NCBI GenBank assembly: GCA_964543815.1
Contig: CAZIZG010000005.1
Coordinates: forward strand, 9,424-73,423
Length of the DNA: 64,000 nucleotides
Source of the DNA: an uncultured Bdellovibrionales bacterium
Lineage (GTDB): Bacteria; Patescibacteriota; Minisyncoccia; Moranbacterales; UBA1568
Direction: 5' to 3'
Shown: in pieces, positions 40,265 to 61,850 of the stretch
Layout of the letters: each line of letters opens with the position of its first letter
How positions within the stretch are numbered: the first letter of the stretch is position 1
Program-made: the position numbers and the translations under genes
Notes under the pieces: model-generated
Seen by the model: the letters and a program-made list of their open reading frames with translations, nothing else
What the model was told of the DNA's origin: nothing
Databases searched by the model: none

Positions 40265-40338
40265 GGATGATTAGCTCAGTTGGTTAGAGCACAGCATTCA
40301 CATTGCTGGGGTCACTGGTTCGAATCCAGTATCATCCA
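40265..40338 (+). tRNA. tRNA-Val (anticodon CAC)
   Basis: Manual cloverleaf fold: acceptor GGATGAT/ATCATCC, D-arm GCTC/GAGC, anticodon stem CAGCA/TGCTG with loop TTCACAT, T-arm ACTGG/CCAGT with loop TTCGAAT, discriminator A; CCA not encoded. Confidence 0.8.
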
Positions 40339-42380: not shown

Positions 42381-42453
42381 TGGGTGCGGGGGGAATCGAA
42401 CCCTCGACCGTTGGCTTAAAAGGCCACTGCTCTACCGACTGAGCTACGCACCC
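42381..42453 (-). tRNA. tRNA-Lys (anticodon UUU)
   Basis: Manual fold of the reverse complement: acceptor GGGTGCG/CGCACCC, D-arm GCTC/GAGC, anticodon loop CTTTTAA, T-loop TTCGATT. The T-stem GAGGG/CCCCC has one A-C mismatch; CCA not encoded. Confidence 0.75.
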
Positions 42454-45635: not shown

Positions 45636-46301
45636 ATGGGAAATCAGAATCTTTTCGTGTTGCTTCGCTCGAAATTTGGTACCCTGGTCATCTGGGGATT
45701 GCTTTTCGGCGCCTTGGCATTCTTCGGTCTTCTTATGACCGAAAAGCCATTTCAGACCAAGATGGATTTCTTGGTAGTGCAGGCTAATGCGACCAATCAG
45801 GATTTCTATACCCAGTTTAAATCCTCTGAGTATCTGGGCAAGATTTTGTCTGAGGCGGTGTACAGCGATCGCTTTATTGATGCCCTTGTTGAAACTGGCA
45901 AGGTAAATAAAGAATTCCTGCCTTTTGATAAACAGCAACGCCTCGCTACTTGGAGCAAGATGGTCCAGGTTGATAAGAACCTTGAACTCGGTATCATCAG
46001 TGTGACTGTCAAAGGTGATCGTGAACGCGATGTTGCTCGAATCATGGATGGTATCGCCGAGGTACTGACGACGCGCAATTCCCTCTTCCGTGGTGGTGAT
46101 GAAAAGAGCGTGGAGATCCGAATTCTTTCCGGCCCCATTCTTGAGCAGAATCCTGGGATGGCCAAGACACTGAAAGTGGTGCTCGTTGCCTTCCTCGCTG
46201 GACTGTTTGTTTCAGCCTTTGTCATCATCGTGAAAGCTGAATCCAAAACGAAGCCAGTCATTCGTCCGGATGGTCTTCATTTGAACGATACCATAGTCTA
46301 A
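45636..46301 (+). CDS. Wzz/polysaccharide co-polymerase-like protein (paralog 2 of 3)
   Basis: 221 aa with TM helices at both ends; the periplasmic region resembles the proteins at 22446 and 60811 (QANATNQDFYTQFKSSEYLGKIL). Confidence 0.45.
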   Translation: MGNQNLFVLLRSKFGTLVIWGLLFGALAFFGLLMTEKPFQTKMDFLVVQANATNQDFYTQFKSSEYLGKILSEAVYSDRFIDALVETGKVNKEFLPFDKQQRLATWSKMVQVDKNLELGIISVTVKGDRERDVARIMDGIAEVLTTRNSLFRGGDEKSVEIRILSGPILEQNPGMAKTLKVVLVAFLAGLFVSAFVIIVKAESKTKPVIRPDGLHLNDTIV

Positions 46302-46454
46302 GTAATTCCTTGATACTTGTGGCTTTCTGGTCATAAGTATCCTGGGAAGAGAGCGGTGTAGCGTTATCGTCATCACTGCTTTCTTCCTAGGATAGATTCG
46401 AAAGTGTAGTTTAACAATCAGTCTATCAGTTTTCAACTTCAACCTGGAGGTCGT

Positions 46455-47582
46455 ATGACCATGTTTCATAAGCTTTTGCTTCTGATCGTGTACGCGGCCT
46501 TCGCTGGTTGTGCCACGAATCCGCGTTTTGCCACTGAACTGCCCGCGAGTCATATCTCGGGTCAGAAGGTGTGTGAAGTGCCACAGCATTGGGAGGCGCT
46601 GGCGCTGAAAGGCGTCAATATGAAGTCGCTTACCAAGGCGAATGTGATTCAAGTGAGGATTCCGCCACAATGGGTGGGGGATGCGCTCGGGTGGTTTGTC
46701 GAGAGCGAGGAAGCTCGTACACTCGAACACTATCCGCGTATGACATGGCAAGCGCTGGTGGTAAATCAGCGTGGCGAGAAACAGATGTTTCCCGCCGTCA
46801 TGAAGAACCCGCTCGTTTCACCGATACTGACGATCATCATTGCAGACCCGGCATTTTCGATGGGGGATGAAGTGAACGTGTATGTGCCATCGGGCGCCTA
46901 CACCAAGCTTCTGACTACCACCGGTGATATGCTGCGTCTACCGATGAGTATGGACTGCCTTGGATTGGTTGATGCCGAATTCGTTCGGTCATTTCCGTCC
47001 AAGGCTCGAGTGCTGCCGGCAGGTGAAAGTCTGCTTGCGGGTATTCGGAAGGACTTCTCTGAGCCATCACTGCAAAGCGATGGCACGGTCTATTCCATCA
47101 GTCCGTTGGCGCTCACTCCGCAAGTGGTGGGTGACCTCCGTCAGGTGACACAGGGTGAGCGTATCGCTGAACGTGGTTTGCCGATTGCCTTTCCTCCAGG
47201 ATTGGGCACGGCAATTTCGCTCACTGTTGCTCTCGCGAGCACTGGTGACGATAAGTACGTCGGACCTTTCGGGGAACGGCTGTACTCACCACCTGAGGTG
47301 AATGCTGCGCTCGCTCGATATCTGCGCGTTTACAACTCGCTTAAGAATGACCTGGAATGGCGTCTGGGGATACCTCCTTCGGATGCTGTTGCTCCTCACC
47401 TGACCTTTGACGGACGCAAGTCCGGCTGGGAAATCGGTGAAGAGATGGTCTTTCGAGTGAGGGCCATGTGGGAAGTGCTCGATCAGTTGAAAGAGCGCTT
47501 TCTGTCTCGCACCAAGGAGAAAGGTGCACCTGCAATGAAAGAAGCAACTCAGACCGGGCTGCTTCCGAGCAGCTCACCTTAA
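46455..47582 (+). CDS. Hypothetical lipoprotein (island gene 1)
   Basis: Signal peptide with lipobox-like AAFAGC; GGAGG SD 6 nt upstream; GC-rich codon usage; no catalytic motifs recognised. Confidence 0.5.
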   Translation: MTMFHKLLLLIVYAAFAGCATNPRFATELPASHISGQKVCEVPQHWEALALKGVNMKSLTKANVIQVRIPPQWVGDALGWFVESEEARTLEHYPRMTWQALVVNQRGEKQMFPAVMKNPLVSPILTIIIADPAFSMGDEVNVYVPSGAYTKLLTTTGDMLRLPMSMDCLGLVDAEFVRSFPSKARVLPAGESLLAGIRKDFSEPSLQSDGTVYSISPLALTPQVVGDLRQVTQGERIAERGLPIAFPPGLGTAISLTVALASTGDDKYVGPFGERLYSPPEVNAALARYLRVYNSLKNDLEWRLGIPPSDAVAPHLTFDGRKSGWEIGEEMVFRVRAMWEVLDQLKERFLSRTKEKGAPAMKEATQTGLLPSSSP

Positions 47583-47602
47583 ACCCTTTGGAAGGAGTTC
47601 CC

Positions 47603-49120
47603 ATGAAATGGCTTCCCTCTCTCCTGCTGCTCCTCGGAGCGGCGGGTGCGTGGGCTGGTCAACCACCAGACCACAGGATCGAGCCAGGTGAAACGCTTGG
47701 CAAGATCGCGCAGAAGTACGGTTACGACTACAAGGTGCTTGGCGCCTTCAATGGTCTGACCAATCCGAACAAGATCCAGGCAGGAGCGATGATCCGGTTT
47801 CCGGCTCGTGGTGCCTCGCCTGCGATCAAGTCAGAACTTTCGTGCATTACGCTCGGTGCTGCTCCCTTCAACCCGGAGCACGTACTGAAGCGGACGCTCG
47901 AGGGTATCGACCTGCTTCAGACGCTGACCCCTCAACAACGGGAGTTGGCCAAGAACAAGGTTCTGCTCGGCGAGGTCGCAACGAGGAACGAATTGGTGGG
48001 GCAGCAAATCTTCACGGAAATGTTGTACCAATCCAAGTTCGGCAAGAAGCAAGTGGTGCACGTGTTCGGCAAGCCGATTTGCAGCCCGGAACAAGGGGGG
48101 CAGCCGGAGGTGATGAACACGTATGACCTGGGTGAGGGGGTATTTCTCTCCATCCCACGTCGGTGCGGCAACCCGTCAGTTTTCACCAAGCCGGTGAAGC
48201 CGACAACTCCGCCCCCGCCACCTCCTCCGCCACCAGCTACCACTCCCGATCCGACTCCTCCGGTGACATCACAACCCGATGAACCCGTAGAAGTTGAGCG
48301 GGTGGCACGTGACTACGATTGGGACGCGGGTCTCTTCGTAGGTGGCGACAAGGACGTGCGCTTTGCCGGTGGTGAAGGTGCTGGTTACCCGGTCATCAAG
48401 TATTACGACTGGGGACGCTACGCCCTCGGTGGTGGTGGTTCGTTTAGCCTCTGGAACGGCGGTACGCCTGATGGGTACCGCTACCGGGGTGAAACGGCTG
48501 CCTTTGGTCTGGCTCAGAAGTTTTCGTTCACAGGCGGTCGTGATCTGGGAGTCAAGTTCCCGATGTACGGTGACCTGTGGACGAGGGGTCATGACGCGAG
48601 TGGCAAGTACCAGCAGAAGACGCATGCCAGCATGCTCTGCGCTTCAGTGAGTTATACCGATGCTTCCCGTGAAAAGGAAGGCAAGACGGTGGCTCCCGAG
48701 TGGCAGCTGTGGGCATCGTTCTGCGACCCGTTCTCGCAGACCAAGTCGCACAGTTACGACGGCAAGCCTCTCGATGCGGCGACGATTCCCAACGTGAAGT
48801 ACGTGGCGGGCGTCGGCGGTCGGGTGATTCTGTCGAAGAATCTGGGCGACAGCGGTCTCGCGGCGAAGTTGCAACCGTTTGTGGAAGTGGGTGTCAATCA
48901 GACGGCGCCTAACCCACTCTCTGGACACGCCTACATCGGCCTGCGAACGGTCAACAAGGTGTGGGGTTGTGGAATCGGCGTGCACTACGCTGAGACCGGC
49001 AGTCTCCCCGGAGCTACCTGTACGTACGACCTCGGTCGTGACGTCAAGCTCCGGATCCAGAAGGAACGGTGGGATGCAATGATTCGGAGCCTCGAAGCTC
49101 TGGGTGTTGCTACCGACTGA
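47603..49120 (+). CDS. Secreted LysM-domain protein with poly-proline linker and a C-terminal Gly/Tyr/Trp-rich beta-rich domain (island gene 2)
   Basis: Signal peptide MKWLPSLLLLLGAAGAWA; LysM motif HRIEPGETLGKIAQKYGYDYKVLGAFNGLTNPNKIQAGAMIRFP; PTTPPPPPPPPPATTPDPTPP linker; GGAAGGAG SD. Start at 47603 rather than the ORF-track start. Confidence 0.65.
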   Translation: MKWLPSLLLLLGAAGAWAGQPPDHRIEPGETLGKIAQKYGYDYKVLGAFNGLTNPNKIQAGAMIRFPARGASPAIKSELSCITLGAAPFNPEHVLKRTLEGIDLLQTLTPQQRELAKNKVLLGEVATRNELVGQQIFTEMLYQSKFGKKQVVHVFGKPICSPEQGGQPEVMNTYDLGEGVFLSIPRRCGNPSVFTKPVKPTTPPPPPPPPPATTPDPTPPVTSQPDEPVEVERVARDYDWDAGLFVGGDKDVRFAGGEGAGYPVIKYYDWGRYALGGGGSFSLWNGGTPDGYRYRGETAAFGLAQKFSFTGGRDLGVKFPMYGDLWTRGHDASGKYQQKTHASMLCASVSYTDASREKEGKTVAPEWQLWASFCDPFSQTKSHSYDGKPLDAATIPNVKYVAGVGGRVILSKNLGDSGLAAKLQPFVEVGVNQTAPNPLSGHAYIGLRTVNKVWGCGIGVHYAETGSLPGATCTYDLGRDVKLRIQKERWDAMIRSLEALGVATD

Positions 49121-49262
49121 TAGACACTCCTCTCTCATGTAAAGTCCGAGACAGAATAAGTCTCAAGGCGAGCCTCTCAAGGGGCCGCCTCATAAAAAGT
49201 GTACGCTCTGACGTACTGGCTCATGGAGAGTAGGAAAACAGTCGCGACATCGTTCGCACAAT

Positions 49263-49306
49263 CAGGGCAGGAAGTTCATCCGAACGACCTGCCCTTGATC
49301 TTTTTA
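49263..49306 (+). terminator. Rho-independent terminator after the LysM gene
   Basis: AGGGCAGG / CCTGCCCT stem with 16-nt loop, followed by TTGATCTTTTTATA. Confidence 0.6.
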
Positions 49307-49332
49307 TACCTCCATAAAGCCATAATTTAGAT

Positions 49333-49361
49333 ATTGACAAAACAGGGAAAAGGGTGTATAC
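49333..49361 (+). promoter_or_regulatory. Near-consensus sigma70 promoter for island gene 3
   Basis: TTGACA, 17-nt spacer, TATACT; about 125-nt structured leader before the ATG at 49492. Confidence 0.65.
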
Positions 49362-49491
49362 TGAGTCGTTCAGTGGAAATCTCGTATGAGGTATCTCCTG
49401 AACGGTTTCGAATGTGCCTGAACATCCCAACCTCGGTTGGGTCGATGTGTCAGGCACATCTCATCACCCAACCACGTGCAAGGAGCACACC

Positions 49492-50103
49492 ATGTCGAAG
49501 AAGTTCGTTCTCATCGCTCTGACCGCCATCGCGGCCATCACCACCAATGCCTGGTCCGCTGGTGACCCCCTGAAGGGTGTCGCTGGCTACGATTCGGCAG
49601 GTGGCAGCAGCATCACGCTCACGGCCTCGGCGGTGAAGGACAAGTCCTACACCATCACCATCGCCGGCATGATCGGCGTCACGCCCGACGCGCTGAATGG
49701 CCTGACGCCCTACGCCAAGGTCATGGACGTCCCCCTGAAGAAGGAGGTCGGCCTGTACAAGCTGCCCGAAGGAACCAAGGTGTACGCCATGGGCCTGGGC
49801 CGTGACTGGGGCGACATGAGCGAGGAATTGGCCAAGATCGAGCTGGCCAAGGCCAAGGCCGAAGCCACGCTGGGCGCCGACGGCAAGCTCACCTTCACCT
49901 TCACCAAGGGCGAGGAACGCTGCCGGACGGTCAATTGGGTGGCGGTGCTGCCGGGCGGCGAGCAGCGCGCCTGGGGTGGTCATCCCGGCGCCTGGGTTGC
50001 CAAGAACGTGAACGATTCGCCGCGCACCGCCTGGTGCTTCCAAGGCGACAAGGTCGTCCAGATGGACCAGGCCACCAAGGTGGCGCTGGCCGGCAAGAAG
50101 TAG
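49492..50103 (+). CDS. Hypothetical secreted protein, very GC-rich (island gene 3)
   Basis: 203 aa with signal peptide ending AWSAG; AAGGAG SD 6 nt upstream; strongly GC3-biased codons; the long antisense ORF here is a GC artefact. Confidence 0.55.
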   Translation: MSKKFVLIALTAIAAITTNAWSAGDPLKGVAGYDSAGGSSITLTASAVKDKSYTITIAGMIGVTPDALNGLTPYAKVMDVPLKKEVGLYKLPEGTKVYAMGLGRDWGDMSEELAKIELAKAKAEATLGADGKLTFTFTKGEERCRTVNWVAVLPGGEQRAWGGHPGAWVAKNVNDSPRTAWCFQGDKVVQMDQATKVALAGKK

Positions 50104-50146
50104 CCAAGGCGGCCACAGCAGCTCCGCGTCAGTGACGCGGTTCCAA

Positions 50147-50190
50147 AGGAGTTTCAAAGTACACTGTACTGCGAAACTCCTCTTTTTTTA
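50147..50190 (+). terminator. Rho-independent terminator closing the GC-rich island
   Basis: AGGAGTTTC / GAAACTCCT stem with an internally palindromic loop, followed by a T8 run. Confidence 0.7.
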
Positions 50191-50235
50191 TTCAAAAATA
50201 TCCCCAGGCTACTCTTTTCATCTTGCTTCTTTCCT

Positions 50236-50275
50236 AATTCCTCACTTTCTTACGACCGTGAAAAAGTGAGGAATT
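50236..50275. repeat. Hairpin element A (AATTCCTCACTTT-N14-AAAGTGAGGAATT), 3' of the PaaX-like gene
   Basis: Perfect 13-bp inverted repeat with loop CTTACGACCGTGAA; about 90% identical to the reverse complement of element B. Confidence 0.6.
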
Positions 50276-50278
50276 TAT

Positions 50279-50827
50279 TTATTTGAGTTTGAATAACTTT
50301 TTTAACACCGCTTCGTTGTTTATATATTCGGCCGTAATAATGCGGACAAATGGTTCTGCTTGATAGAGTTTTACGAGAGATGTTATCTCCTTTTCACACG
50401 GGAAGGGAAAGATAAACACACTGTGTTGAAGTTCGTGAAATCCTACCGCTTTGAGATGAGAACGGAAGATATCACGGAATTTTCTGTGTTTTTCCGGGAT
50501 ATCGAAGAGTACTAATCGCCACAAGCTATCCCAATGCTTTGGATTCTTTATCTTTATACCTAAAAGTTGGCCAAGAGTCGCGCGTCGTCTGCCCTCGGTG
50601 GTGAGGTGTAGCGAAACTGATCCATCAGAGTGTTTTTTCTCAAAAATGAGTTGGTGCGAATAAAGTGAACGAACAGTCCTGGTTAGATTTGAGTGGTTGA
50701 TTTTCCGCCATTCTTTGCTGGCTAGGCTGAGTATTCGGAAGCTTTGTTTTGGAGAAGAAGAGCAGCTCAGAGCTATTCCGCTGAGAAGGAGTAAGAGGAC
50801 TTTTTCTTGTGCTGTTCCAGGTTTCAT
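50279..50827 (-). CDS. Short PaaX-family-like transcriptional regulator (wHTH N-terminus plus Cas2-like PaaX_C C-terminus)
   Basis: The C-terminal WRLVLFDIPEKHRKFRDIFRSHLKAVGFHELQHSVFIFPFP fits the PaaX_C/Cas2-like pattern. Start chosen at MKPGTAQ (50827) because the ORF-track N-terminal extension runs through hairpin element B. Confidence 0.55.
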   Translation of the reverse strand: MKPGTAQEKVLLLLLSGIALSCSSSPKQSFRILSLASKEWRKINHSNLTRTVRSLYSHQLIFEKKHSDGSVSLHLTTEGRRRATLGQLLGIKIKNPKHWDSLWRLVLFDIPEKHRKFRDIFRSHLKAVGFHELQHSVFIFPFPCEKEITSLVKLYQAEPFVRIITAEYINNEAVLKKLFKLK

Positions 50828-50837
50828 AATTCTTGCT

Positions 50838-50873
50838 TTCCTCATTTTTTCACGGTCGTGAGAAAATGAGGAA
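50838..50873. repeat. Hairpin element B (TTCCTCATTTT-N14-AAAATGAGGAA), 5' of the PaaX-like gene
   Basis: 11-bp inverted repeat with loop TTCACGGTCGTGAG, the reverse complement of the element A loop (one mismatch). Confidence 0.6.
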
Positions 50874-50903
50874 TTAAAGAAGGAGAAAAGTAGCAACGAA
50901 GAA

Positions 50904-52283
50904 TTATTTTTTTTCTGAATTTTTTTGGTCGGAGAGGGCAAGGAGAGCACCAAAGGCGGTGAAGAACAACCATTGGACTGGCGTGTTTTTGAAAATGTTG
51001 TCCGTTAACGCCGAGAGTTCGAGGGTGACGAAGAAAACAAAGAGGATACCAAAGGCAATCTGGAGGGCGCTGCCCCGACGACTGCTTCGGTAACGGCGAA
51101 TGAGTAGTGTAGCGATAGATCCAAGGTAGGTGATGAGTGCCACGACACCAATGACGCCACCTTCGACATAAAATTTTACCAGATCATTATGGGGATCATT
51201 GGGACCGTGATTGGTACCACGGACACTCTCGGAAATTCTGGGAAAGGTATCCATGCCGGCACCGAGGAGTACTCGATTGTCCTGACGGGTAGCGACGGTA
51301 ACATCGTTCCAGAGAGTCTGACGCCAGACAATCGAGCTATCGGGATCAGGATGAAAGCTTTCAGAAACACGTGATTGGAAACTCGGCGAAAAGACAAAGA
51401 GGACGAAAGGAAACAGAAAAAGAGGAAAGAGGAGTAGTCGGTATCGGAAGAGTGCTACGAGAAAAACAAAGAGAAAGAGGGCGACCCAGGCGACCCGGGC
51501 GAAAGTAAGGAGGAGCATGGTGGCAAAAATACCGAGGATAGCGAGCATGAGGATGCGCTTCAGGCCGCTTTCGGCGAAGAGAACGAGGTACATCACCCCA
51601 AAGACAATCATGGCAAAGAGGTAGAGTGAATAGACGTTCGGGTGACTAAAGGTACCAAAGATGCGGAGAATCGAGACATTTTCATCCGAGAGGCCAATAT
51701 GAAACACAAACTGGTAGAGGCCAAAGAGAATCGGGAGGATGCTCGAGATAAAAAAGGCTTGGAGGAGGTATTGAAAATCACGGGTAGTCCGGATAGTAGC
51801 ATAGGCGAGAAAGCCGAGAGCAAACAAATCAAAGACGCGGAGGAGCTCCTGGAGCGTCACTCGAGGATAGAGGGAGTAGAGGAGGGTGAGTCCACCCCAG
51901 AGAAAAATGACTAAAAAAGGGAAGTTGAGAGGAAAGCGTGGGAGAGTGGCACGCTTCAAGATGAGTACGAGTATTCCAAGGAAGGCAATGCCGACGCCGA
52001 CTAGCTGTGAAAGGGTGAGAGTGATGTCGTAGAGAGTGATACTCACGTACTGTGATGAGTAGTCGAGGGACATACGTACGATGACGAGGAGAAAAAGGAG
52101 GAGGAGTGGGGATTGAAACAAGAGAACAAGCGAAAGTATCCCCACGACAAAAAGTGGCGCGATGAAAAGCGAAAGGTGGAGCACCAGTGAGAGCGCGAGA
52201 CCTACCAGGAGCACAGTTCCGAGTGCTCCAATGAGGAACGGGTGACGAAGGACGGCAAAGGGGTTGTCAGTAGGATTTGTCAT
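50904..52283 (-). CDS. O-antigen ligase/polymerase-family (Wzy_C-like) polytopic membrane protein
   Basis: 459 aa, about 12 TMs with a large extracytoplasmic loop carrying conserved His/Arg (GTNHGPNDPHNDLVKFYVEGG), in a polysaccharide gene neighbourhood. Confidence 0.5.
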   Translation of the reverse strand: MTNPTDNPFAVLRHPFLIGALGTVLLVGLALSLVLHLSLFIAPLFVVGILSLVLLFQSPLLLLFLLVIVRMSLDYSSQYVSITLYDITLTLSQLVGVGIAFLGILVLILKRATLPRFPLNFPFLVIFLWGGLTLLYSLYPRVTLQELLRVFDLFALGFLAYATIRTTRDFQYLLQAFFISSILPILFGLYQFVFHIGLSDENVSILRIFGTFSHPNVYSLYLFAMIVFGVMYLVLFAESGLKRILMLAILGIFATMLLLTFARVAWVALFLFVFLVALFRYRLLLFPLFLFPFVLFVFSPSFQSRVSESFHPDPDSSIVWRQTLWNDVTVATRQDNRVLLGAGMDTFPRISESVRGTNHGPNDPHNDLVKFYVEGGVIGVVALITYLGSIATLLIRRYRSSRRGSALQIAFGILFVFFVTLELSALTDNIFKNTPVQWLFFTAFGALLALSDQKNSEKK

Positions 52284-52291
52284 GATTTCAC

Positions 52292-52945
52292 TTACTGGTG
52301 TTTATCCCAAATGACTGTAAAGGTCATTGGTAGGCCACAGAAACGGTTTTTGATAAGCGTGTAGTTACTGATACCAACTTCAGAAAAAAGACGTCTCAAG
52401 TCAGATTCTGAGAGGAGAGACATATAGTCACCAGCTGCCCAGGATTTGCCAATCCAGGTGACGAAACGATCAAAATTTTTTTTGGAGAGGAGGAGGTGGA
52501 GGAGTGGTATGCGGGTATGGAGTTCAACCGGGAAGTGACGGTTGGGGGTGGTGAGGTAGCCACGGCCACTGATTCGGACGAGCTCCGAAAGGAAGCGCCG
52601 TTGATCATCAAAGTTTCCGACGTGTTCGATAACAGCATTGGAATAGGCGATAGCAAAAGTATCATCCGGAAAGGTTAGGGCTCGGCCATCGCCCGAGAGA
52701 CTGGTGACGAGGGGGTAGCGCTCTTTGAAGGCGGTAAAATCTCCGAGGCCAACGACGGTAATTTTTTCTGGATGCGGATAAAATTTTTCTAAGTAGTTAT
52801 CGGTATCGGAATATTCGGTAGTGTTGACTCCAACATCAACAATAGTCTCCTCTGGTTTTGGGGAGATGAGAGTGAGAAACTGGGTAAATTTTTTCTTCCG
52901 GCTCTCGGCGGAGATAGAGTAGGCGATTCTTTCAATGATAGACAC
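52292..52945 (-). CDS. Class I SAM-dependent methyltransferase
   Basis: Motif I-like IVDVGVN and an acidic motif II/III arrangement of about 217 aa; co-directional with and 8 nt from the ligase-like gene. Confidence 0.55.
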   Translation of the reverse strand: MSIIERIAYSISAESRKKKFTQFLTLISPKPEETIVDVGVNTTEYSDTDNYLEKFYPHPEKITVVGLGDFTAFKERYPLVTSLSGDGRALTFPDDTFAIAYSNAVIEHVGNFDDQRRFLSELVRISGRGYLTTPNRHFPVELHTRIPLLHLLLSKKNFDRFVTWIGKSWAAGDYMSLLSESDLRRLFSEVGISNYTLIKNRFCGLPMTFTVIWDKHQ

Positions 52946-53020
52946 AGTGTTGTTCTTAGGTCTTTTTTTACCTATAATGCCATTATAACGGGTATTCTAG
53001 AGAGAGCAAAGCTTGTAAAT

Positions 53021-54247
53021 ATGCGTGTTCTCCTTATCGACAAATATCATCGGCAGTATGCTGGTCCGCAGCGGTTGTATTTTGATACAGCCAAACTGTT
53101 AGAGTCACAGGGTCACGAAGTGGCTTTTTTTGCTATGGCCCATCCCAAGAATGAAGAGACAGTTTGGAGTCGTTTCTTTGTTGATCAGGTAGACTACGAA
53201 GAAGCGAATCAGCTGTCGTTTTGGGATAAGGTAAAAGTGGCCCGAAACATTATTTGGAATCCTCAGGCCAAGAAAAATCTGGAAGCGCTCATTGATGAAT
53301 TTAAGCCTGATGTGGCACATTTGTTTGTGACGTATCATCAGTTGTCACCGTCGATTATTTGGGCCCTCAAGGGTCGGGGAATTCCCATGGTGATGACGCT
53401 CTGTGACTATAAGCTTGCCTCGCCCAATTACAGTTTGTTTGTTCGTGGTCAAATCTGGGAGCATGCCTCTGGTTTTCGTTGTCTCGCTGATCGCTGCGTT
53501 AAGGATTCTTATGGAAAGAGTCTCGTTTGTGTGTTAGAGCAATGGTTCCATAGGATTATCGGTACCTATGGCAAGGTTGATGCTTACATTGGACTCAGCC
53601 AGTTCCTCATCGATACCTATAAACGCCTTGGGTTTCCCTATTTGATAATGCTCTTACCACAGCCATTAGTGCCCTTGCCTGACGTCAATGCCCCGCTCCC
53701 TGAAAAAATGAGTAAAAATTTTCTCTATTTTGGTCGGCTGTCGGCTGAAAAGGGGATAGCTACTCTCATTCAATCCTTTAGCGAACTGAATGATGGTGAG
53801 ACTCTTTCTATCATTGGATTTGGTCCGGAAGAAGAGCGTTTGAAGCGATTAGTCTCAGAGCTTGGGCTAGAGAATAAAGTTTCGTTCTTGGGTCCGGTGT
53901 ACGGCGATGATTTGAAAGAGCGATTATCGTTTGCCCGAGCGGTCGTGGTACCATCGGAGTGGTATGAGAATACGCCCTATGCTCTGCTTGAAACGTTGGC
54001 CTCCGGGACACCAGTGATAGCCGCTCGTGTAGGATCACTCCCTGAGCGCGTACGCGACAACTACAATGGACTCCTTTTTACCCCGGGTGATGCTCATGAT
54101 TTGGCTGAGAAAATGAAACAAATTTTGACCTTGGACACACCATCGCTTCAGAAATGCGCCAGAGAGAGTGTTCTTCCGCTGGATCAAAAAAGCTACCTGG
54201 CAGTCCTTATAGACCTCTATTCTTCCCTTATCAAAGCCAAAAAGTAG
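53021..54247 (+). CDS. Glycosyltransferase family 4
   Basis: GT4 C-terminal domain (VVVPSEWYENTPYALLETLASGTPVIAARVGSLPE). Confidence 0.8.
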   Translation: MRVLLIDKYHRQYAGPQRLYFDTAKLLESQGHEVAFFAMAHPKNEETVWSRFFVDQVDYEEANQLSFWDKVKVARNIIWNPQAKKNLEALIDEFKPDVAHLFVTYHQLSPSIIWALKGRGIPMVMTLCDYKLASPNYSLFVRGQIWEHASGFRCLADRCVKDSYGKSLVCVLEQWFHRIIGTYGKVDAYIGLSQFLIDTYKRLGFPYLIMLLPQPLVPLPDVNAPLPEKMSKNFLYFGRLSAEKGIATLIQSFSELNDGETLSIIGFGPEEERLKRLVSELGLENKVSFLGPVYGDDLKERLSFARAVVVPSEWYENTPYALLETLASGTPVIAARVGSLPERVRDNYNGLLFTPGDAHDLAEKMKQILTLDTPSLQKCARESVLPLDQKSYLAVLIDLYSSLIKAKK

Positions 54248-54261
54248 CTTATTTCCAGCTC

Positions 54262-54290
54262 TTGACAAAACTGAAAAAATAGTGTAATAT
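54262..54290 (+). promoter_or_regulatory. Sigma70-type promoter for the epimerase gene
   Basis: TTGACA, 17-nt spacer (AAACTGAAAAAATAGTG), TAATAT. Confidence 0.6.
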
Positions 54291-54323
54291 GACCCGTTAA
54301 CAGTAATTCGGGTGATATTTCCT

Positions 54324-55325
54324 ATGGGAAAGAAATGTCTGGTACTGGGTGGGGACGGATTCCTCGGCAGTCACTTGGTTGACGATCTCTTGGCACGCGG
54401 CTATGACGTGCGGGTGTTTGATCGTTTCCGTAAAGGACATATCAAAAACTTGAATCACGTAAAGGGGAAAATCGAGATTCACAAGGGAGACTTTTTGAAC
54501 AAGCGACACCTTTCTCGGGCACTTCAGGGTGTGGAGTATGTTTTTCACTTCGTGTCACTGAGTACGCCAGCTTCTACTGCCAATGACCCGCAGCGGGAAA
54601 TCAAACTGAACCTCGAGGGGACGCTTCAGCTTCTTGATTTGTGTGTGAAATATGGCGTGAAGAAAGTAATCTATCCTTCCTCAGGTGGAGCAGTATATGG
54701 GAATGCCCTCGATGAGGTGGCAGATGAAACAACTCAGCCTCGCCCGATGTCGCCGTATGCGGTGACTAAGCTCGCTATCGAAGAGCATTTACACTACTAT
54801 CGCCGCCAGCACAACTTACCGTTTGTTATTTACCGTATCGCCAATCCCTACGGTGAACGTCAGGATCCGAATGGTATTCAAGGAGCTATCCCGATTTTCA
54901 TGAAGCACATGATGAAAAATGAGCTGCTTGAGCTCTATGGGAATACCGTTCGCGACTACGTATATGTCAAGGATGTGACCGGCTTTATTGCTGAGAACTT
55001 TGCCATAAAGCACAAGAATTCAACCTATAATGTTGGGAGTGGTCGCGGAGTGGCTCTCTTTGAGTTGGTGCTCATGTTGGCCAAAACAACGCAGTCGATG
55101 CCTCGTATCAAACGTTTGGAAAAACGTCCGTTTGACGTCCAAAAAATCGTACTTGATATTAGTCGCTCCAGTGAAGAATTTGGCTTCTATCCGATTACCA
55201 GTCTTGAGGTTGGTCTTGAAAAGACCTATGCTTTTCTCAAACAAAAATATGCCCACGAAGCCGTGGTGCGTACCTCATGGTTTGACATGAATGTTGCAAA
55301 GTTCATAAAATGGGACCGAGTCTAA
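54324..55325 (+). CDS. NAD-dependent epimerase/dehydratase (UDP-sugar 4-epimerase-like SDR)
   Basis: Rossmann GGDGFLGSHL and catalytic YAVTK (YxxxK); about 330 aa. Confidence 0.85.
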   Translation: MGKKCLVLGGDGFLGSHLVDDLLARGYDVRVFDRFRKGHIKNLNHVKGKIEIHKGDFLNKRHLSRALQGVEYVFHFVSLSTPASTANDPQREIKLNLEGTLQLLDLCVKYGVKKVIYPSSGGAVYGNALDEVADETTQPRPMSPYAVTKLAIEEHLHYYRRQHNLPFVIYRIANPYGERQDPNGIQGAIPIFMKHMMKNELLELYGNTVRDYVYVKDVTGFIAENFAIKHKNSTYNVGSGRGVALFELVLMLAKTTQSMPRIKRLEKRPFDVQKIVLDISRSSEEFGFYPITSLEVGLEKTYAFLKQKYAHEAVVRTSWFDMNVAKFIKWDRV

Positions 55326-55397
55326 GACCCATCCTCATGTTTTACTGAAAACGTCAGTTTTTAGTAGAGTTGTTTGACAATCACAGTGGAGATCCTT

Positions 55398-55886
55398 ATG
55401 TTGCGAATTTTTTTTCGTGCTTGCATCGCGTTCATGAGTGCGTTCGCTATCCTGCTGGCGGGAAGCGTGATCCTAAGCTACGCTCATGCCGCCGAGTCCA
55501 AGGGCTTTTCGGCTACCTATGTGGCCAAGGACGCTCATTTGGCGCAGGTCTATCTCTTTGTGGAGTATTACTCCGCTGGGAGGACAGCGACGAGTCCGGC
55601 GGCTAAGAAACTGGCCAGGGAATTGAATCGGGCGCTCAGTACTTCATTTCAACCAATCATGGGAGGCGGCAGGGGTGCTGTGCGGGCACACTGCAACATC
55701 GTTCTCCGTGATTGGAAAGACGGGGAAGGTGATCCGAACTTCCAGGTTCGTTGTGAGACATCGGCAGGTGGAACTGAAGTGGCGCCATTCGTTTCGATGG
55801 ACCTGCCGGAAACGGTCGCAGACGTGATGAAGCTCGTCAACGCTTTGATGATTGAGCACAGGCGTCGTATCGCACATCCCGGCTAA
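55398..55886 (+). CDS. Hypothetical secreted protein in a moderately GC-rich insert
   Basis: Signal peptide MLRIFFRACIAFMSAFAILLAGSVILSYAHA; GGAGA SD-like sequence 6 nt upstream; GC above neighbours; the TTG-started ORF-track extension is rejected. Confidence 0.45.
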   Translation: MLRIFFRACIAFMSAFAILLAGSVILSYAHAAESKGFSATYVAKDAHLAQVYLFVEYYSAGRTATSPAAKKLARELNRALSTSFQPIMGGGRGAVRAHCNIVLRDWKDGEGDPNFQVRCETSAGGTEVAPFVSMDLPETVADVMKLVNALMIEHRRRIAHPG

Positions 55887-55986
55887 GTCTCGCATGGCGT
55901 ATGCAGCCACGGTAATACCGCTCGGCTGTTTTTTATTTTCTGAAGGTATCCTCTATACTGAGAGAGGCATTACTTCAAAAAAATGT

Positions 55987-56400
55987 ATGAGTTTCTTTTC
56001 TTCAAAAAATCTTATTTTATTTCTTCGATGGTGTTCCGGAGGAATTTTTGTAGTAGCTGGTGTTGTTGAGTTATGTGGTTTTTCCGGGTACGTTTCACCT
56101 ATGGAAATTTTTGGTCCGGGCATATCACGCAGTGTGGTAACCCTTTCGGCACTGATAGAAATAATGAGTACAATACCAATTTTGTTAGGAAGGTTAACGG
56201 GATTATTTTTTATTTTGGTGACAGCTCTCGTTGTCTATAAGGGTATGGCCCTCGGATATAGTTTTTATCGAGAGCTGGGAGGAACTCCAGGCTGGGTCCT
56301 CTGGCTTCAGGCAATGGTTATGATTCAGGGCGTTGTATATTTAGGTATCAGCCTGTTTCAGGCACAACAACGGCGTAAGCAGATAGAAGAAGGATTCTAA
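55987..56400 (+). CDS. Small 4-TM membrane protein (DoxX-like)
   Basis: About 137 aa with four hydrophobic helices; start ATG 55987. Confidence 0.4.
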   Translation: MSFFSSKNLILFLRWCSGGIFVVAGVVELCGFSGYVSPMEIFGPGISRSVVTLSALIEIMSTIPILLGRLTGLFFILVTALVVYKGMALGYSFYRELGGTPGWVLWLQAMVMIQGVVYLGISLFQAQQRRKQIEEGF

Positions 56401-58502
56401 ATTTTTTGAAGGGTAATGCGGGCATCAAGCACACGGAAACGCTCAGCTTCTTTGAATGCGAGGAGAGGATTGATATCGAGCTCGACTATTTCTGGGAAAT
56501 CTTCAATGAGGAGTGAGAGGCGCCCTATAGCATCTTTCAGTGCTTCAAGGTCGATGCCAGTTTGACCGCGAGCCCCGGTGAGAAGAGGAAGGCTTTTGAG
56601 CTCCTCAATCATTTCGCGAGCATCTTCTTCTTGGAGTGGAGCGAAACGAAAGGCTACATCCTTGAAAACTTCAACAAAAATACCACCTAGCCCCACCATG
56701 AGGAGAGCACCGAGACCTGGTTCGCGCTTCATGCCAAGAATAATCTCTCGGCCACCGGATTCTGCCATTTCAACCATGAGCGCTCCTTCGAGGATTGCCT
56801 CTGGTGCGCGCTCTTTGACACGAGCCAGAAGGAGGTCGTACTTTTCTCCGACTTCTTCAGGGGCGATATCAAGGAGTACCCCACCAACATCAGATTTGTG
56901 GGTGATTTGTGGAGAAATAATCTTGAGAGCGATTTTTCCAGTAAAGTGTTTGGCTGCTACCTCGGCCTCTTCGCGATTGTGGGCAGAGGCACTTTCCAGA
57001 AAACGGAATCCATAAGCAGAAAGAATGTCCCAAACCTCCGTTTCGTAGAGAGCAGAGCGCCCTTCTTTAGTGGCTCTTGTTATTACTCGTGCTGCACTTT
57101 CTTTGTCGATATCGTTAAAGTGAAAGGATGTCGCAAGGTTCTGTTCTCGCCATGATGCCACTTGAGCTAATGCTGCCAACCCCTGGGCTCCGGCCTCTGG
57201 ATAGATGAGGGTAGCAACTTGATTTTTTTGAAGGACACTAAGGCCTGAAGCAAGGGCAGTTTTGCCAGCGAGGACGGCCACGATGGGTTTGGAGCTGTGG
57301 TTTTTCGTATCTGCTATCGCTTCTGCTGTTTCCTTGGCCTGGGTCATTGCCTGGGGGGTGATAATGGTAAGGATCATATCAACCTGAGAATCAGCCGAGA
57401 GTGCTTCTAATGCGAGTTTGTAGCGATCGGCTAGGGCGTCACCGAGGACGTCGACGGGATTGTGACGTGATGCTGCCGCGGGTAAGGCACTAAGTTTTTC
57501 AATGGTTTCGGGCGAGAGAGTGGCGATTTTGAGACCATGTTTTTCAGCGGCATCTGTAGCGAGGACACCGAGCCCACCGGCATTGGTAATAATGCCAATA
57601 TTTTTTCCTTGAGGAAGGGGATTTTGTGAAAATACAGCAAGGAGATCAGAGAGGGATTCGAGTGACTCTGCTCGGATGATGCGAGCCTGGCGGAAAAGCG
57701 CCTGATAGGCAGCATCGCTTCCAGCGAGGGCGCCAGTATGAGAACTCGAAGCGGCCGTGCCTGAAGTAGTGGTGCCTGATTTGAGAGCGATGAGGGGTTT
57801 AGGTGTTGGGCGTGCGAGAATAGCTCGGCCCGTTTCGATAATATGCTTAGCATCAGTCAGCCCTTCGGTATAAAAGCTAATGACGGACGTTTCCTCGTCA
57901 GCAGCAAAATATCGAAGGAGTTCGTTTTCACCAACTACCGCCTTGTTGCCATCGCTGACAAAGGATGAAAAACCCAGTGTATCACCAGTGAGATCGAGGA
58001 GGGCAGTACAGAGGGCCCCGCTTTGTGAAAAGAAGGCAATGTGGCCAGCTACTGGGAGACCAGAGGCAAATGAGGCATTGAGTCCGAGCTTAGGATGGAG
58101 AAAGCCGAGACAGTTGGGACCAAGGAGGGCGATATTATATTCTTCAGCGATATCTTTAATCTCTTGTTCAAGCGCCGAACCTTTTTCGCCTGTTTCTTTA
58201 AACCCTGAGGAAATAATGATAGCAGCCGGTATATTTTTTTCACCGGCAGCCCGGAGTGCTTCTGGTACGGCTGCAGCTGGAATAATAATAATCGCCAAAT
58301 CAACTTCGTGGGGGATGTTGGTAATACTCGGAAAACAAGGGAGGTTAAAAAGAGTATCTGTTTTTGGATTTACCGGGTAGACGGTGCCGCTATAGCCGTG
58401 AGTGAGTAAATTATGAGTGAGGTTCCAGCCGACACTCCCTTCTTTGGTGGAGGCGCCAACGACAGCGATAGAGCGGGGCGAAAAAAGACTTGAGAGTTGC
58501 AT
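56397..58502 (-). CDS. Acetate--CoA ligase (ADP-forming), fused alpha/beta (NDP-forming acyl-CoA synthetase)
   Basis: 701 aa with an N-terminal CoA-binding domain (RSIAVVGAS), a succinyl-CoA-synthetase-like ligase domain with phospho-His loop, and a C-terminal ATP-grasp domain. Confidence 0.85.
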   Translation of the reverse strand: MQLSSLFSPRSIAVVGASTKEGSVGWNLTHNLLTHGYSGTVYPVNPKTDTLFNLPCFPSITNIPHEVDLAIIIIPAAAVPEALRAAGEKNIPAAIIISSGFKETGEKGSALEQEIKDIAEEYNIALLGPNCLGFLHPKLGLNASFASGLPVAGHIAFFSQSGALCTALLDLTGDTLGFSSFVSDGNKAVVGENELLRYFAADEETSVISFYTEGLTDAKHIIETGRAILARPTPKPLIALKSGTTTSGTAASSSHTGALAGSDAAYQALFRQARIIRAESLESLSDLLAVFSQNPLPQGKNIGIITNAGGLGVLATDAAEKHGLKIATLSPETIEKLSALPAAASRHNPVDVLGDALADRYKLALEALSADSQVDMILTIITPQAMTQAKETAEAIADTKNHSSKPIVAVLAGKTALASGLSVLQKNQVATLIYPEAGAQGLAALAQVASWREQNLATSFHFNDIDKESAARVITRATKEGRSALYETEVWDILSAYGFRFLESASAHNREEAEVAAKHFTGKIALKIISPQITHKSDVGGVLLDIAPEEVGEKYDLLLARVKERAPEAILEGALMVEMAESGGREIILGMKREPGLGALLMVGLGGIFVEVFKDVAFRFAPLQEEDAREMIEELKSLPLLTGARGQTGIDLEALKDAIGRLSLLIEDFPEIVELDINPLLAFKEAERFRVLDARITLQKI

Positions 58503-58569
58503 AGAAAAGTGTATAAAGAATGGTTTTTTAGAGCCAGAAACCCCTTTAGTTTACCGCACAATTGTACCC

Positions 58570-58598
58570 TTGACAAAAAGGCAAAAATTTGATAAGAT
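58570..58598 (+). promoter_or_regulatory. Sigma70-type promoter; transcript is leaderless or has a very short leader
   Basis: TTGACA, 17-nt spacer, TAAGAT, overlapping the ATG at 58597. Confidence 0.5.
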
Positions 58599-59586
58599 GG
58601 AGGGTCTAAAAATTCATGATTTTATTCGTATGCAGGCTCGTAATTTTTGGCTTTCTCGAGAGGTTATTCTCGGTTTTGCACTGACCGTGCTTATTGCTGT
58701 TCCGGTTATGGTGTTTGGTGGTAGCAAACAGGTCTATGTAGATAAAGATGCCAAGGGATCCGAAGAAGGAACTTCGAATCATCCCTATCACAGCATTGGC
58801 AAAGCGCTCAAACATACTGATGGGAGTGCTGAAATTCATATTGCCAAAGGGACATACAAGGAAAATATTACTCTTCCCAAAGGAGTAAAGCTTTTTGGGA
58901 AGAAAAGCGACATTGGTGATGTCGTGATTAAATCTGACAATGGTGACAAACCGGCTGTTACGATGAAGCATCAGACGGAACTCAACTTTCTAACAGTTGA
59001 AGGTGGTCGTCACGGTGTTCGTGTTTTGGAGGATGCCAAGGTGAAAATCTACAAGGTCAATATCAAGAAGAGTAACCGAGATGGTATTCATATTGATGCC
59101 GCACCACGTGATAAGAAACACCGTGCACTTATCGATAACGTTGAAATAGAAAATAATGATCGGACCGGTATCTATTCTGAAAAACGTGACATTGTTGTTA
59201 TCAACAGTAACATCCATAACAATGGGAGTGATGGTCTCGATTTAGCGGCGGGTATGGAGGCCTGGTTTGAAAACAATCGTATCAATAACAATGGCGGCAG
59301 TGGTATCAAGGTAGTACTTGATGGCGCTTCTGTCTGGACCAAATCAAACAGTATTCGCAACAACAAGCGCGAGGGTGTTGAGGTCAATGCTTATGGCGCG
59401 GCCGGTAATTTCGGTCTGAAGAAGGCTTCTCTCATCGGGAATGGCCGTTACGGTGTGGCTCGTGTTGCTCGTACAGCAAGTGGCTTCAAATCATTTGGTG
59501 GTATCATCTTAGGTACCGGGGTCAATGACAATCGTCTTGAATCAAACGCTATCGGCAGCACTTCTCCGGTTTTGCGTGGCTTCTAA
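58597..59586 (+). CDS. Membrane-anchored right-handed parallel beta-helix (PbH1) repeat protein
   Basis: N-terminal TM followed by repeated NNG/NNxxxG beta-helix turns (NNDRTGI, NNGSDGL, NNGGSGI, NNKREGV). The start may instead be the downstream Met (58630). Confidence 0.6.
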   Translation: MEGLKIHDFIRMQARNFWLSREVILGFALTVLIAVPVMVFGGSKQVYVDKDAKGSEEGTSNHPYHSIGKALKHTDGSAEIHIAKGTYKENITLPKGVKLFGKKSDIGDVVIKSDNGDKPAVTMKHQTELNFLTVEGGRHGVRVLEDAKVKIYKVNIKKSNRDGIHIDAAPRDKKHRALIDNVEIENNDRTGIYSEKRDIVVINSNIHNNGSDGLDLAAGMEAWFENNRINNNGGSGIKVVLDGASVWTKSNSIRNNKREGVEVNAYGAAGNFGLKKASLIGNGRYGVARVARTASGFKSFGGIILGTGVNDNRLESNAIGSTSPVLRGF

Positions 59587-59639
59587 ATGAGGGGTCCTGT
59601 TAAAGAGTAGTTTCCTTCGTTCTCTAATCAACTCCACGT

Positions 59640-60803: not shown

Positions 60804-60810
60804 ATCTATG

Positions 60811-61839: not shown

Positions 61840-61850
61840 ATCAACTTCTT

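Follow-up and report, generated by a model that had tools for sequence, protein, structure and literature searches.

A gene cassette in a surface-glycan locus

The window, that is, the whole 64,000-nucleotide stretch of DNA that we analysed, contains a small cassette made up, in order, of genes for a Wzz-like protein, a lipoprotein (gene A), a protein with a LysM domain and a predicted barrel (gene B), and at least one small secreted protein (gene C), near genes for Wzy_C and GT4 proteins. The first cassette gene (45636..46301, + strand) encodes a Wzz-like chain-length-determinant protein of 221 aa, which matches TIGR01006 with E=1.3e-10, below the curated cut-off. This gene lies directly 5' of the lipoprotein and LysM-barrel genes in six related loci (L001, L003, L009, L011, L012 and L013); in L014 the Wzz-like match is weak and is located further upstream. 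Gene A (46455..47582, + strand; 375 aa) carries the lipobox AFAG followed by C19, with G18 and C19 invariant in 38 homologues, and it adjoins gene B in every locus compared. We considered gene A as a Wza/OPX-like export protein, a role that is unsupported: its AF2 model has a pLDDT of 74.6, Foldseek against the PDB gave no match with E <0.1, and there was no Pfam match.

Gene B occupies 47603..49120 on the + strand and encodes 505 aa plus a stop codon; its exact protein is present on at least 10 public contigs. Downstream, a consensus scan found a sigma-70-like promoter match (TTGACA-17-TATACT, 11/12; 49334..49362, + strand) 5' of gene C (49492..50103, + strand; 203 aa). Gene C has a GC3 of 0.88, which may reflect high expression, is present in one to three copies in relatives, and has homologues 3' of gene B in L001, L003, L008 and L012; searches of Pfam and the PDB gave no match to it. 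On the opposite strand lies the gene for a Wzy_C membrane protein resembling O-antigen ligases and polymerases (50904..52283, - strand; PF04932, E=2.8e-13), which adjoins the cassette in L001, L003, L011, L012 and L014. The conserved cassette stands at the head of a Wzy_C/GT4 surface-glycan locus.

Conservation and origin of the cassette

In relatives at 68, 60, 47, 42 and 30% identity, the cassette genes are again flanked by frr-RseP and Wzy_C. The gene order repeats in L001, L003, L009, L011, L012, L013 and L014, and contigs long enough to show it have Wzy_C and GT4 close by; the cassette was found at the matching locus in all six of the related genomes with readable frr/RseP or Wzy_C flanks. 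A scan of the genome collection with a 16-sequence alignment returned only three loci. Two of these carry "Bdellovibrionales" titles, a label that we judged to be wrong because the best named matches of PheS (89, 83 and 73% identity) are to Candidatus Moranbacteria. The gene B family is tiny, and the members whose neighbourhood was examined are all CPR-like.

An earlier note on this DNA had placed gene B in a foreign, host-derived island. Base composition bears out one part of that description: GC is 0.55-0.65 in the three island genes vs approximately 0.47 in the flanks, and GC3 is 0.58-0.88. The other features looked for in an island, patchy presence and mobility genes or a tRNA at the border, were absent. 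Specifically, the genes seen beside the cassette include no integrase and nothing else linked to mobility, and housekeeping genes separate it from the nearest tRNA, 3 kb upstream. Relatives as distant as 30-42% identity have the cassette at this site and retain its high GC, and its divergence rises and falls with that of the flanking frr, RseP and Wzy genes across Moranbacteria. Because gene B belongs to a small conserved gene set, we conclude that it is not foreign DNA; the proposal of a horizontally acquired or host-derived island, in any detectable sense, is largely refuted.

Modules of the gene B protein

A Shine-Dalgarno-like AAGGAG (47592..47597, + strand) stands 5 nt 5' of the gene B ATG. 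As read from the sequence, the protein begins with a Sec-type signal peptide (aa 1-19; 47603..47659, + strand) ending in an A-W-A cleavage motif, so that the N-terminus is MKWLPSLLLLLGAAGAWA up to the cleavage site and GQ after it; a hydrophobic N-terminus is present in most of 119 family members. The open reading frame and signal peptide described in the earlier note are thus borne out, as is its LysM peptidoglycan-binding domain (aa 24-67; 47672..47803, + strand). In the full-length protein the LysM domain matches PF01476 with E=1e-9 and 38.7 bits, against a gathering score of 20.9, over model positions 1-43 of 43. It also matches LysM chains in the PDB at E=6e-8 (4uz2, E=5.9e-8) and is modelled by AF2 with a pLDDT of 83-89. 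This domain would bind the cell's own peptidoglycan.

The linker had been thought to follow the LysM domain directly. Instead, a conserved alpha/beta domain of approximately 120 aa (aa ~78-198; 47834..48196, + strand; alignment A1) separates the two; AF2 gives it two helices and six strands with a pLDDT of 75-94. Searched alone, this middle domain had no significant sequence match in Pfam or the PDB, returning only noise (GA module, 0.0036; IsdH linker, 0.17), and it is a novel, uncharacterised domain. It holds the top conserved feature of the family, a Cys188-Gly-Asn190 motif (48164..48172, + strand). Among 119 diverse members, 109 have Cys188 and 108 have Asn190, and the Cys-x-Asn motif is invariant in alignment A1; no partner for Cys188 is conserved among the 119. 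A lone, near-invariant Cys-x-Asn probably marks the middle domain as having a chemical role. B. subtilis YkuD combines LysM with a YkuD L,D-transpeptidase domain, and we considered gene B as such an enzyme. This candidate was rejected: there was no PF03734 match, no His is conserved, and the Asn lies at Cys+2, a different place from that in the YkuD active-site motif.

The proline-rich linker itself was correctly recognized. It spans aa 199-236 (48197..48310, + strand), includes the proline run TTPPPPPPPPPATTPDPTPP, and is predicted to be disordered (pLDDT <50); most family members have a Pro-rich segment at the equivalent position. At approximately 38 aa, this spacer would reach roughly 10 nm if extended. 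Beyond it lies the predicted barrel (aa 239-476; 48317..49030, + strand), followed by an amphipathic, highly charged helix in the AF2 model (aa 477-499; 49031..49099, + strand) in which E488, R489, W490, M493 and E498 are invariant in alignment A2. The conserved, helical tail after the barrel is 29 aa long, and its last residue is Asp.

A predicted outer-membrane-type barrel

The barrel fold comes from one AF2 model, built from 32 sequences, in which aa 239-476 form 12 strands of 10-23 residues joined by loops of 2-14 aa, with pLDDT mostly >90. Foldseek against the PDB matched this model, with probability 1.0, to 12-stranded outer-membrane barrels: Hbp (3aeh, E=1.2e-6), EspP, BrkA, NalP, AIDA-I and invasin (4e1t, E=3.4e-4). 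All 30 of the matches with E<=1e-3 are outer-membrane barrels, and against BFVD the matches were autotransporter beta-domains (E=2e-6). TM-scores against real barrels are modest (0.37-0.53, target-normalised, the highest being BrkA at 0.53), with rmsd of 7-10 A, and sequence identity to autotransporter beta-domains is 9-14%.

Profile searches gave sub-threshold signals. The Pfam family OMP_b-brl (PF13505) was matched below its 28.7-bit gathering score in 2 of 22 members, the window protein having no match. On the full-length proteins, P0032 scored 1.1e-4 (22.8 bits) and the second member 17.5 bits; on the barrel domain alone the best match had E=1.3e-5, below the cut-off. A profile of the barrel domain had no match among PDB sequences at E up to 10.

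In the C-terminal ~270 aa, Gly accounts for 16% and W+Y+F for 13% of residues, a richness in glycine and aromatics that had been pointed out before, together with an alternating hydrophobic pattern. The alternation is confirmed across the family: period-2 hydrophobicity in the strands is 4.99, vs 1.72+-0.65 in shuffled sequences, a value reached by none of 1000 shuffles. The polar and Gly face of the strands holds the conserved residues, with K306, K318, R407 and H461 polar or charged in 100% of members and Gly invariant, and the hydrophobic face is variable across the family. This is the pattern expected of a conserved lumen and a lipid-facing exterior. We therefore read aa 239-476 as an OMP-type 12-stranded barrel, predicted in silico, whose lumen is probably lined with Gly and charged residues and plugged or capped by the C-terminal helix.

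The same topology could be read as that of a soluble protein. The Tubby-like fold has a single C-terminal helix after its 12 antiparallel strands, which is the topology of the AF2 model, and a Tubby-, LURP-one- or scramblase-like barrel closed around its helix would make gene B a wall-bound binder of, for example, a glycan or lipid ligand. It would dispense with a membrane and so fit a monoderm CPR cell. However, Tubby, LOR and scramblase structures are absent from the best 50 Foldseek matches in the PDB, where every match at E<=1e-3 is an outer-membrane barrel, and even with E allowed to reach 10 the Tub, LOR and Scramblase Pfam models were unmatched. Where a soluble barrel would have a hydrophobic core helix, that of gene B is amphipathic and charged, and conservation on the Gly and charged face beside a variable hydrophobic face is the opposite of what a hydrophobic-core barrel would give. 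We consider a soluble barrel quite improbable.

Comparison with hydrolases and known barrel proteins

For the C-terminal region the earlier note had offered either a beta-sandwich or barrel or a hydrolase-like domain, and had proposed to decide by Foldseek between an outer-membrane barrel and a peptidase or amidase fold. It was outer-membrane barrels that were matched. Foldseek and sequence searches of Pfam, NCBIfam and the PDB found no peptidase, amidase or other wall-hydrolase fold in gene B, and in the sequence searches the full protein matched over LysM alone. LysM domains are common in wall hydrolases, and there is a weak NCBIfam match to an M23 hydrolase, confined to the LysM region. Taken with the conserved position, the neighbouring housekeeping genes and the tiny CPR-like family described above, these results make a wall-remodelling enzyme or adhesin on a recently acquired host-derived island a very remote prospect, in spite of the atypical GC. 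The proposed combination of a wall-binding module with a second module does hold, as LysM plus a predicted barrel. Since the LysM domain was found and the C-terminus is folded, not disordered, in the AF2 model, the core observation of a LysM domain with a structured C-terminus stands.

The best structural matches could point to another function, in which the C-terminal barrel would export the rest of the protein. Under type V self-export, LysM and the middle domain would pass through the pore, the Pro-rich segment would stay in the lumen, and LysM would bind the glycans of another cell; this agrees with the earlier idea of attachment to a host wall, which is possible. The order of signal peptide, passenger, linker and 12-stranded barrel is that of type Va proteins, and autotransporter beta-domains are the top Foldseek matches in both the PDB and BFVD. 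The beta-domains of Hbp, EspP, BrkA, NalP and AIDA-I have a 12-stranded barrel with a helix in the lumen, as gene B probably does. In the classical autotransporters, however, that helix is N-terminal to the barrel, while in gene B it is C-terminal; the gene B barrel is followed by its 29-residue tail instead of being terminal, and ends in Asp without the terminal aromatic. The gene B linker is Pro-rich and disordered, where type Va proteins have an alpha-helix. Neither PF03797 (Autotransporter) nor PF11924 (IAT_beta) was matched by the window protein or, with E allowed to rise to 10, by 22 barrel domains. Finally, self-export depends on BAM, a periplasm and an outer membrane, all of them reported to be missing from CPR (bioRxiv 10.1101/2021.05.31.446380; PMC6744442). 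We think it improbable that gene B works in this way.

The inverse autotransporters intimin and invasin (type Ve) have a signal peptide, a periplasmic LysM, a 12-stranded barrel and then a segment that re-enters the pore, a layout that gene B is predicted to share. Gene B differs from them in lacking an Ig-like or lectin passenger, only its 29 residues following the barrel, and in the 120-aa domain and Pro-rich spacer inserted between LysM and barrel.

Two families of wall tethers resemble gene B in layout. E. coli OmpA and OmpA-like tethers combine, in one chain, a small transmembrane barrel and a peptidoglycan-binding domain joined by a proline-rich hinge, and the presumed role is the same, a non-covalent tether from wall to outer layer. 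The order is reversed in gene B, where the peptidoglycan binder is N-terminal; the binder is LysM in place of OmpA_C (PF00691), and 12 strands are predicted in place of 8. Unlike OmpA, gene B also has the Cys-x-Asn domain and the C-terminal helix, and it occurs in a clade reported to be without an outer membrane. OmpM, SlpA and Omp-alpha-beta of diderm Terrabacteria have the gene B order, with an N-terminal wall binder, an extended spacer and a C-terminal barrel. OmpM is built from SLH domains, a coiled coil and a larger trimeric porin barrel, however, and gene B has neither SLH nor coiled coil, nor any sequence similarity to it. Searches of Pfam and NCBIfam found neither OmpA_C (PF00691) nor SLH (PF00395) in gene B. 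As the tether architecture is present without these domains, gene B would be analogous to the OmpA and OmpM tethers and a member of neither family.

The envelope of CPR bacteria

A barrel of this type is at odds with what is reported of the clade. CPR have been described as being without an outer membrane, with TonB and PilQ absent and with microscopy suggesting no Gram-negative envelope (PMC6744442). An OmpM-type tether is typical of the superclade that contains CPR, and porins together with the OmpM system are reported to have been lost in CPR (PMC10160955; bioRxiv 10.1101/2021.05.31.446380), the OmpM system in both Chloroflexi and CPR (bioRxiv 10.1101/2021.05.31.446380). With no outer membrane or porins reported, there is no known layer in which the gene B barrel could sit and no known BamA to insert it. 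No outer-membrane biogenesis genes were seen in the window or in the flanks read around related loci, which extend up to 10 kb in either direction and total approximately 100 kb. In the literature on CPR beta-barrels, porins and LysM in Moranbacteria, we found nothing describing the gene B family.

One way around this difficulty is that the barrel is meant for another cell. LysM would keep gene B anchored in the wall while the barrel inserted itself into the membrane of a host cell, giving the epibiont an adhesin or a route for taking in host metabolites. Patescibacteria are inferred to live as episymbionts that have minimal biosynthesis and no outer membrane of their own (PMC10160955; bioRxiv 10.1101/2021.05.31.446380; PMC6744442), and a compact, BamA-independent, 12-stranded barrel with short loops would then need another membrane. 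The ~10 nm spacer would carry the barrel past the wall. Genes B and C also evolve faster than their flanks, as expected of surface-exposed proteins; in L001, for example, identity is 60% for B and 58% for C vs 85% for PheS and 84% for frr. Against a host-directed role, the envelope-glycan locus around gene B is strictly syntenic and has housekeeping genes on its flanks, pili, secretion systems and toxins are not neighbours, and the modelled lumen seems plugged or narrow, with its conserved residues facing inward. We regard insertion into a host membrane as unlikely.

A proposed peptidoglycan-tethered barrel

The reading that we favour, with a probability of roughly 45%, is that gene B is a Sec-exported, peptidoglycan-tethered barrel of OMP type in Candidatus Moranbacteria that anchors or perforates an outer envelope layer. 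The open reading frame, LysM domain, family conservation, synteny and taxonomy on which it builds are direct observations, and the barrel fold is an in silico prediction; from these we infer peptidoglycan binding, the location of the barrel, its role as tether or channel, and the plug. LysM would hold the N-terminus in the wall, the Pro-rich spacer would extend outward, and the barrel would be seated in a hydrophobic outer layer. So placed, gene B could tether that layer to the wall, give gated passage through it, or both, and it would act together with the other products of the cassette, the Wzz-like protein, lipoprotein A and secreted protein C. By analogy, such a mechanism would follow the logic of OmpA, of OmpM and SlpA, and of the LysM-barrel part of intimin.

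A broader proposal, which we put forward as doubtful, is that some Patescibacteria, namely Moranbacteria and relatives bearing the cassette, possess an outer layer that is toga-like or contains lipid and that was either kept from an ancestral diderm envelope or reinvented. The LysM-spacer-barrel protein would tether this layer to peptidoglycan, and the layer would be assembled without a canonical BamA; the rest of it would be built by the lipoprotein next to gene B, the presumably abundant small secreted protein and the products of the Wzz/Wzy glycan genes.

The CPR/Patescibacteria make up a large share of bacterial diversity, and to our knowledge what is known of their envelope comes solely from a handful of images and from genes that are absent. 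In current models, CPR have lost their outer membrane along with its porins and tethers. Here we describe a conserved family that resembles a peptidoglycan-tethered outer-membrane barrel and that is present, within a surface-glycan gene set, in every related locus examined. Its existence implies one of three things: an outer hydrophobic layer has gone unrecognised in some CPR; an OMP-type barrel has been put to a new use, such as insertion into a host membrane; or a new soluble fold is being misread by AlphaFold and Foldseek. Any of these outcomes would be informative, and gene B is a well-defined protein on which proteomics, cryo-ET labelling and in-vitro folding studies can focus.

Gene structure and N-terminal modules

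The open reading frame of gene B, the LysM-barrel protein gene at 47603-49120 (+), is real and encodes 505 aa. An AAGGAG sequence at 47592-47597 (+) precedes its ATG at 47603; a longer frame opening with GTG at 47468 would run into the upstream gene and is probably not the one in use. The product starts with MKWLPSLLLLLGAAGAWA, followed by GQ, which is readable as a Sec signal peptide. A LysM domain occupies aa 24-67 (full-length Pfam match, E = 1e-9; 38.7 bits, cut-off 20.9) and matches LysM chains in a PDB sequence search at E = 6e-8. Within aa 199-236, modelled by AlphaFold2 as disordered, lies the proline-rich run TTPPPPPPPPPATTPDPTPP, and the last ~270 residues are 16% Gly and 13% aromatic. 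An earlier note, made from the sequence alone, had named the signal peptide, LysM domain, linker and C-terminal region, and they hold; its domain order, however, put the LysM domain directly before the linker, where a folded domain of ~120 aa intervenes. Most elements of that description were thus correct, but it was not complete, since it missed the middle domain.

This conserved domain (aa ~78-198) comprises two helices and six strands in the AlphaFold2 model, at pLDDT 75-94, and has no significant relative in Pfam or PDB searches. Just ahead of the linker, Cys188-x-Asn190 (window 48164-48172) is the most conserved feature across the family: the cysteine is present in 109 and the asparagine in 108 of 119 diverse members (~91%), and the motif is retained even where the remaining middle domain is replaced. 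Among the same 119 members there is no conserved partner Cys or His. Conservation of a lone cysteine suggests chemistry: the residue might form a covalent link, hold a ligand or take part in self-processing.

The predicted C-terminal barrel

All structural evidence on gene B is computational. The AlphaFold2 model, built from a family alignment of 32 sequences (A1), has a mean pLDDT of 84. It places 12 strands, each 10-23 residues long and mostly at pLDDT >90, in residues 239-476, with connecting loops of 2-14 residues; residues 477-499 then make up a helix. When this model was searched against the PDB with Foldseek, 30 matches were obtained at E <= 1e-3, and all 30 are outer-membrane barrels. 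Twelve-stranded autotransporter beta-domains head the list (Hbp, 3aeh, E = 1.2e-6), with EspP, BrkA (TM-score 0.53 normalised to the target), NalP and AIDA-I among the further matches and the invasin beta-domain 4e1t at E = 3.4e-4. A BFVD search gave the same picture. A PDB sequence search with the barrel profile returned no match, and Pfam OMP_b-brl was matched by 2 of 22 family barrels, below its cut-off; such sequence evidence for the barrel is thin, yet it points in the same direction as the structure matches. The earlier note's pairing of a wall-binding module with a beta-barrel is upheld, the barrel by the 12 strands and the Foldseek matches; its hydrolase-like alternative is not: a hydrolase, peptidase or amidase fold was absent from every search.

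A further line of evidence is the arrangement of residues along the strands. Period-2 hydrophobicity in the family is 4.99, compared with 1.72+-0.65 for shuffled sequences, and was reached in 0 of 1000 shuffles. Family-wide, the conserved residues, invariant glycines among them, sit on the polar face and the hydrophobic face is variable; K306, K318, R407 and H461 are polar or charged in 100% of members. This is the pattern expected if the exterior faces lipid and the lumen is functional. The domain could instead be a soluble, Tubby-like barrel that has been misread as an outer-membrane protein (OMP), but the pattern is opposite to that of a barrel with a hydrophobic core, and we regard this as improbable. 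The helix at the C-terminus, amphipathic and charged (E488, R489, W490, M493 and E498 are invariant in the close subfamily), would plug or cap the lumen, like the pore helix of autotransporters. We conclude that gene B probably encodes a LysM domain joined to an OMP-like barrel fold.

Source genome

The window is a bacterial chromosome rich in housekeeping genes (RecJ, MacAB-like pump, PBP1a, SecDF, TyrRS, PheST, MreBC, PBP2, GreA, class II aminoacyl-tRNA synthetases of Asp/Lys/Asn type, SerRS, frr and RseP). Its PheS has its best named matches (89, 83 and 73% identity) in Candidatus Moranbacteria/Moraniibacteriota, Patescibacteria, and two members of the gene B family are also named Candidatus Moranbacteria. 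Records of two GTDB representative MAGs (CAZATJ01 and CAZTBI01) are titled "uncultured Bdellovibrionales"; yet their loci are syntenic with the window, where PheS points to Candidatus Moranbacteria. We regard this as a labelling conflict, probably a taxonomic mislabel in public records.

Elsewhere in the window, SecD (12742-14430) has a PPIase (Rotamase) domain inserted between its P1 subdomains. tRNA genes lie at 40265-40338 (+) and 42381-42453 (-); the former runs across the TTG given as the start of the SerRS ORF (40280), so the true start must be further downstream. The segment 26000-31000, with genes for a divergent GARS-like ATP-grasp protein, an EamA transporter and a histidine kinase, has low GC (0.38-0.42) and strong positive GC skew, an outlier in the direction opposite to the high-GC cassette.

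The cassette and its surroundings

Composition at 46.4-50.1 kb is atypical: lipoprotein gene A (46455-47582, +), gene B and gene C (49492-50103, +) have GC of 0.55, 0.59 and 0.65, against ~0.47 (genome ~47%), and GC3 of 0.58, 0.67 and 0.88. Part of this stems from the protein sequences, in which an abundance of Gly, Ala, Pro and Arg pushes up GC at the first and second codon positions; selection on codons for high expression may account for the remainder. The foreign, host-derived island of the earlier note is not supported. In relatives, the cassette (a Wzz-like gene at 45636-46301 (+), then A, B and C) occupies the same position between frr-RseP and Wzy_C (50904-52283, -), with gene B identities of 68, 60, 47, 42 and 30%, and the syntenic copies keep its high GC. 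Its divergence follows that of the flanks: in two related loci, L001 and L003, identity to the window is 84% and 69% for frr, 79% and 67% for RseP, and 60% and 42% for gene B. Even distant members (profile E down to ~1e-4) retain the gene order, from Wzz-like through lipoprotein and LysM-barrel to small secreted protein(s), near Wzy_C, GT4, MurJ, DUF4012 or beta-helix genes. Neither an integrase nor any further mobility gene was seen at the locus. A cell-wall enzyme carried on a foreign island, which the odd composition might have favored, is accordingly a reading to which we give almost no weight.

The sole locally variable insert is a PaaX_M/Cas2-like gene (50279-50953, -, GC 0.41) between gene C and Wzy_C, overlapping the Wzy_C start; it is found in the near-identical contigs L004-L006 and missing at that position in L001, L003 and L011.

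Gene C encodes a secreted protein of 203 aa with no known domain, has its own near-consensus promoter, TTGACA-17-TATACT (feature span 49334-50103), and is present in 1-3 copies in relatives; its product may be a surface protein made at a very high level. A 235-aa antisense ORF (49450-50157, -), which arises from the high GC of gene C, is annotated in its place in one public assembly (L005), an annotation artefact. The model of lipoprotein A is moderate (pLDDT 74.6) and has no structural neighbour, so it does not help to decide between readings. The cassette opens a surface-glycan locus of ~17 kb (45636-63224; 45.6-63.2 kb), which continues with Wzy_C, a methyltransferase, GT4, an NAD-dependent epimerase, an acetyl-CoA-synthetase-like ligase, a pectate-lyase-like beta-helix protein, GT4 and DUF4012.

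Possible function and relation to known designs

The reading we favour for the gene B product is a peptidoglycan-tethered, OMP-type barrel. Its LysM domain would grip the wall, the 38-residue proline spacer (~10 nm if extended) would project outward, and the barrel would be embedded in a hydrophobic outer layer, which the protein would tether, perforate, or both, acting in concert with lipoprotein A, secreted protein C and the Wzz-like protein, all conserved alongside it. We put the probability of this reading, with the barrel in an outer layer of the cell's own, at roughly 0.45. What speaks against it is the clade: according to published work, CPR bacteria have no outer membrane, TonB, PilQ, porins or OmpM system (PMC6744442; bioRxiv 10.1101/2021.05.31.446380; PMC10160955), and no outer-membrane biogenesis genes were seen in any flank examined. 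Insertion into the membrane of a host is a clearly less likely site. Display of the LysM domain on the surface in a type V-like manner would fit the autotransporter domains among the structure matches, but gene B has no PF03797 match, its linker is not helical and its barrel is not at the C-terminal end, and we consider this doubtful. The remaining probability falls to something other than these five readings.

The tethered-barrel design is shared with OmpA, with OmpM/SlpA and with the LysM-barrel part of intimin. Gene B nevertheless fails the membership tests for all three: it has no OmpA_C, SLH or PF11924 match, respectively, and no passenger. A barrel-domain profile run against 1.84 billion representative proteins found 154 at E <= 1e-3 and 68 at E <= 1e-30. 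Almost without exception they measure 450-700 aa, with the barrel C-terminal, and most begin with a signal peptide and a LysM-like segment. The family is small, metagenome-only and unannotated, and we found no published description of it in the literature. In gene B a known design takes a new form, within a clade not expected to have it.
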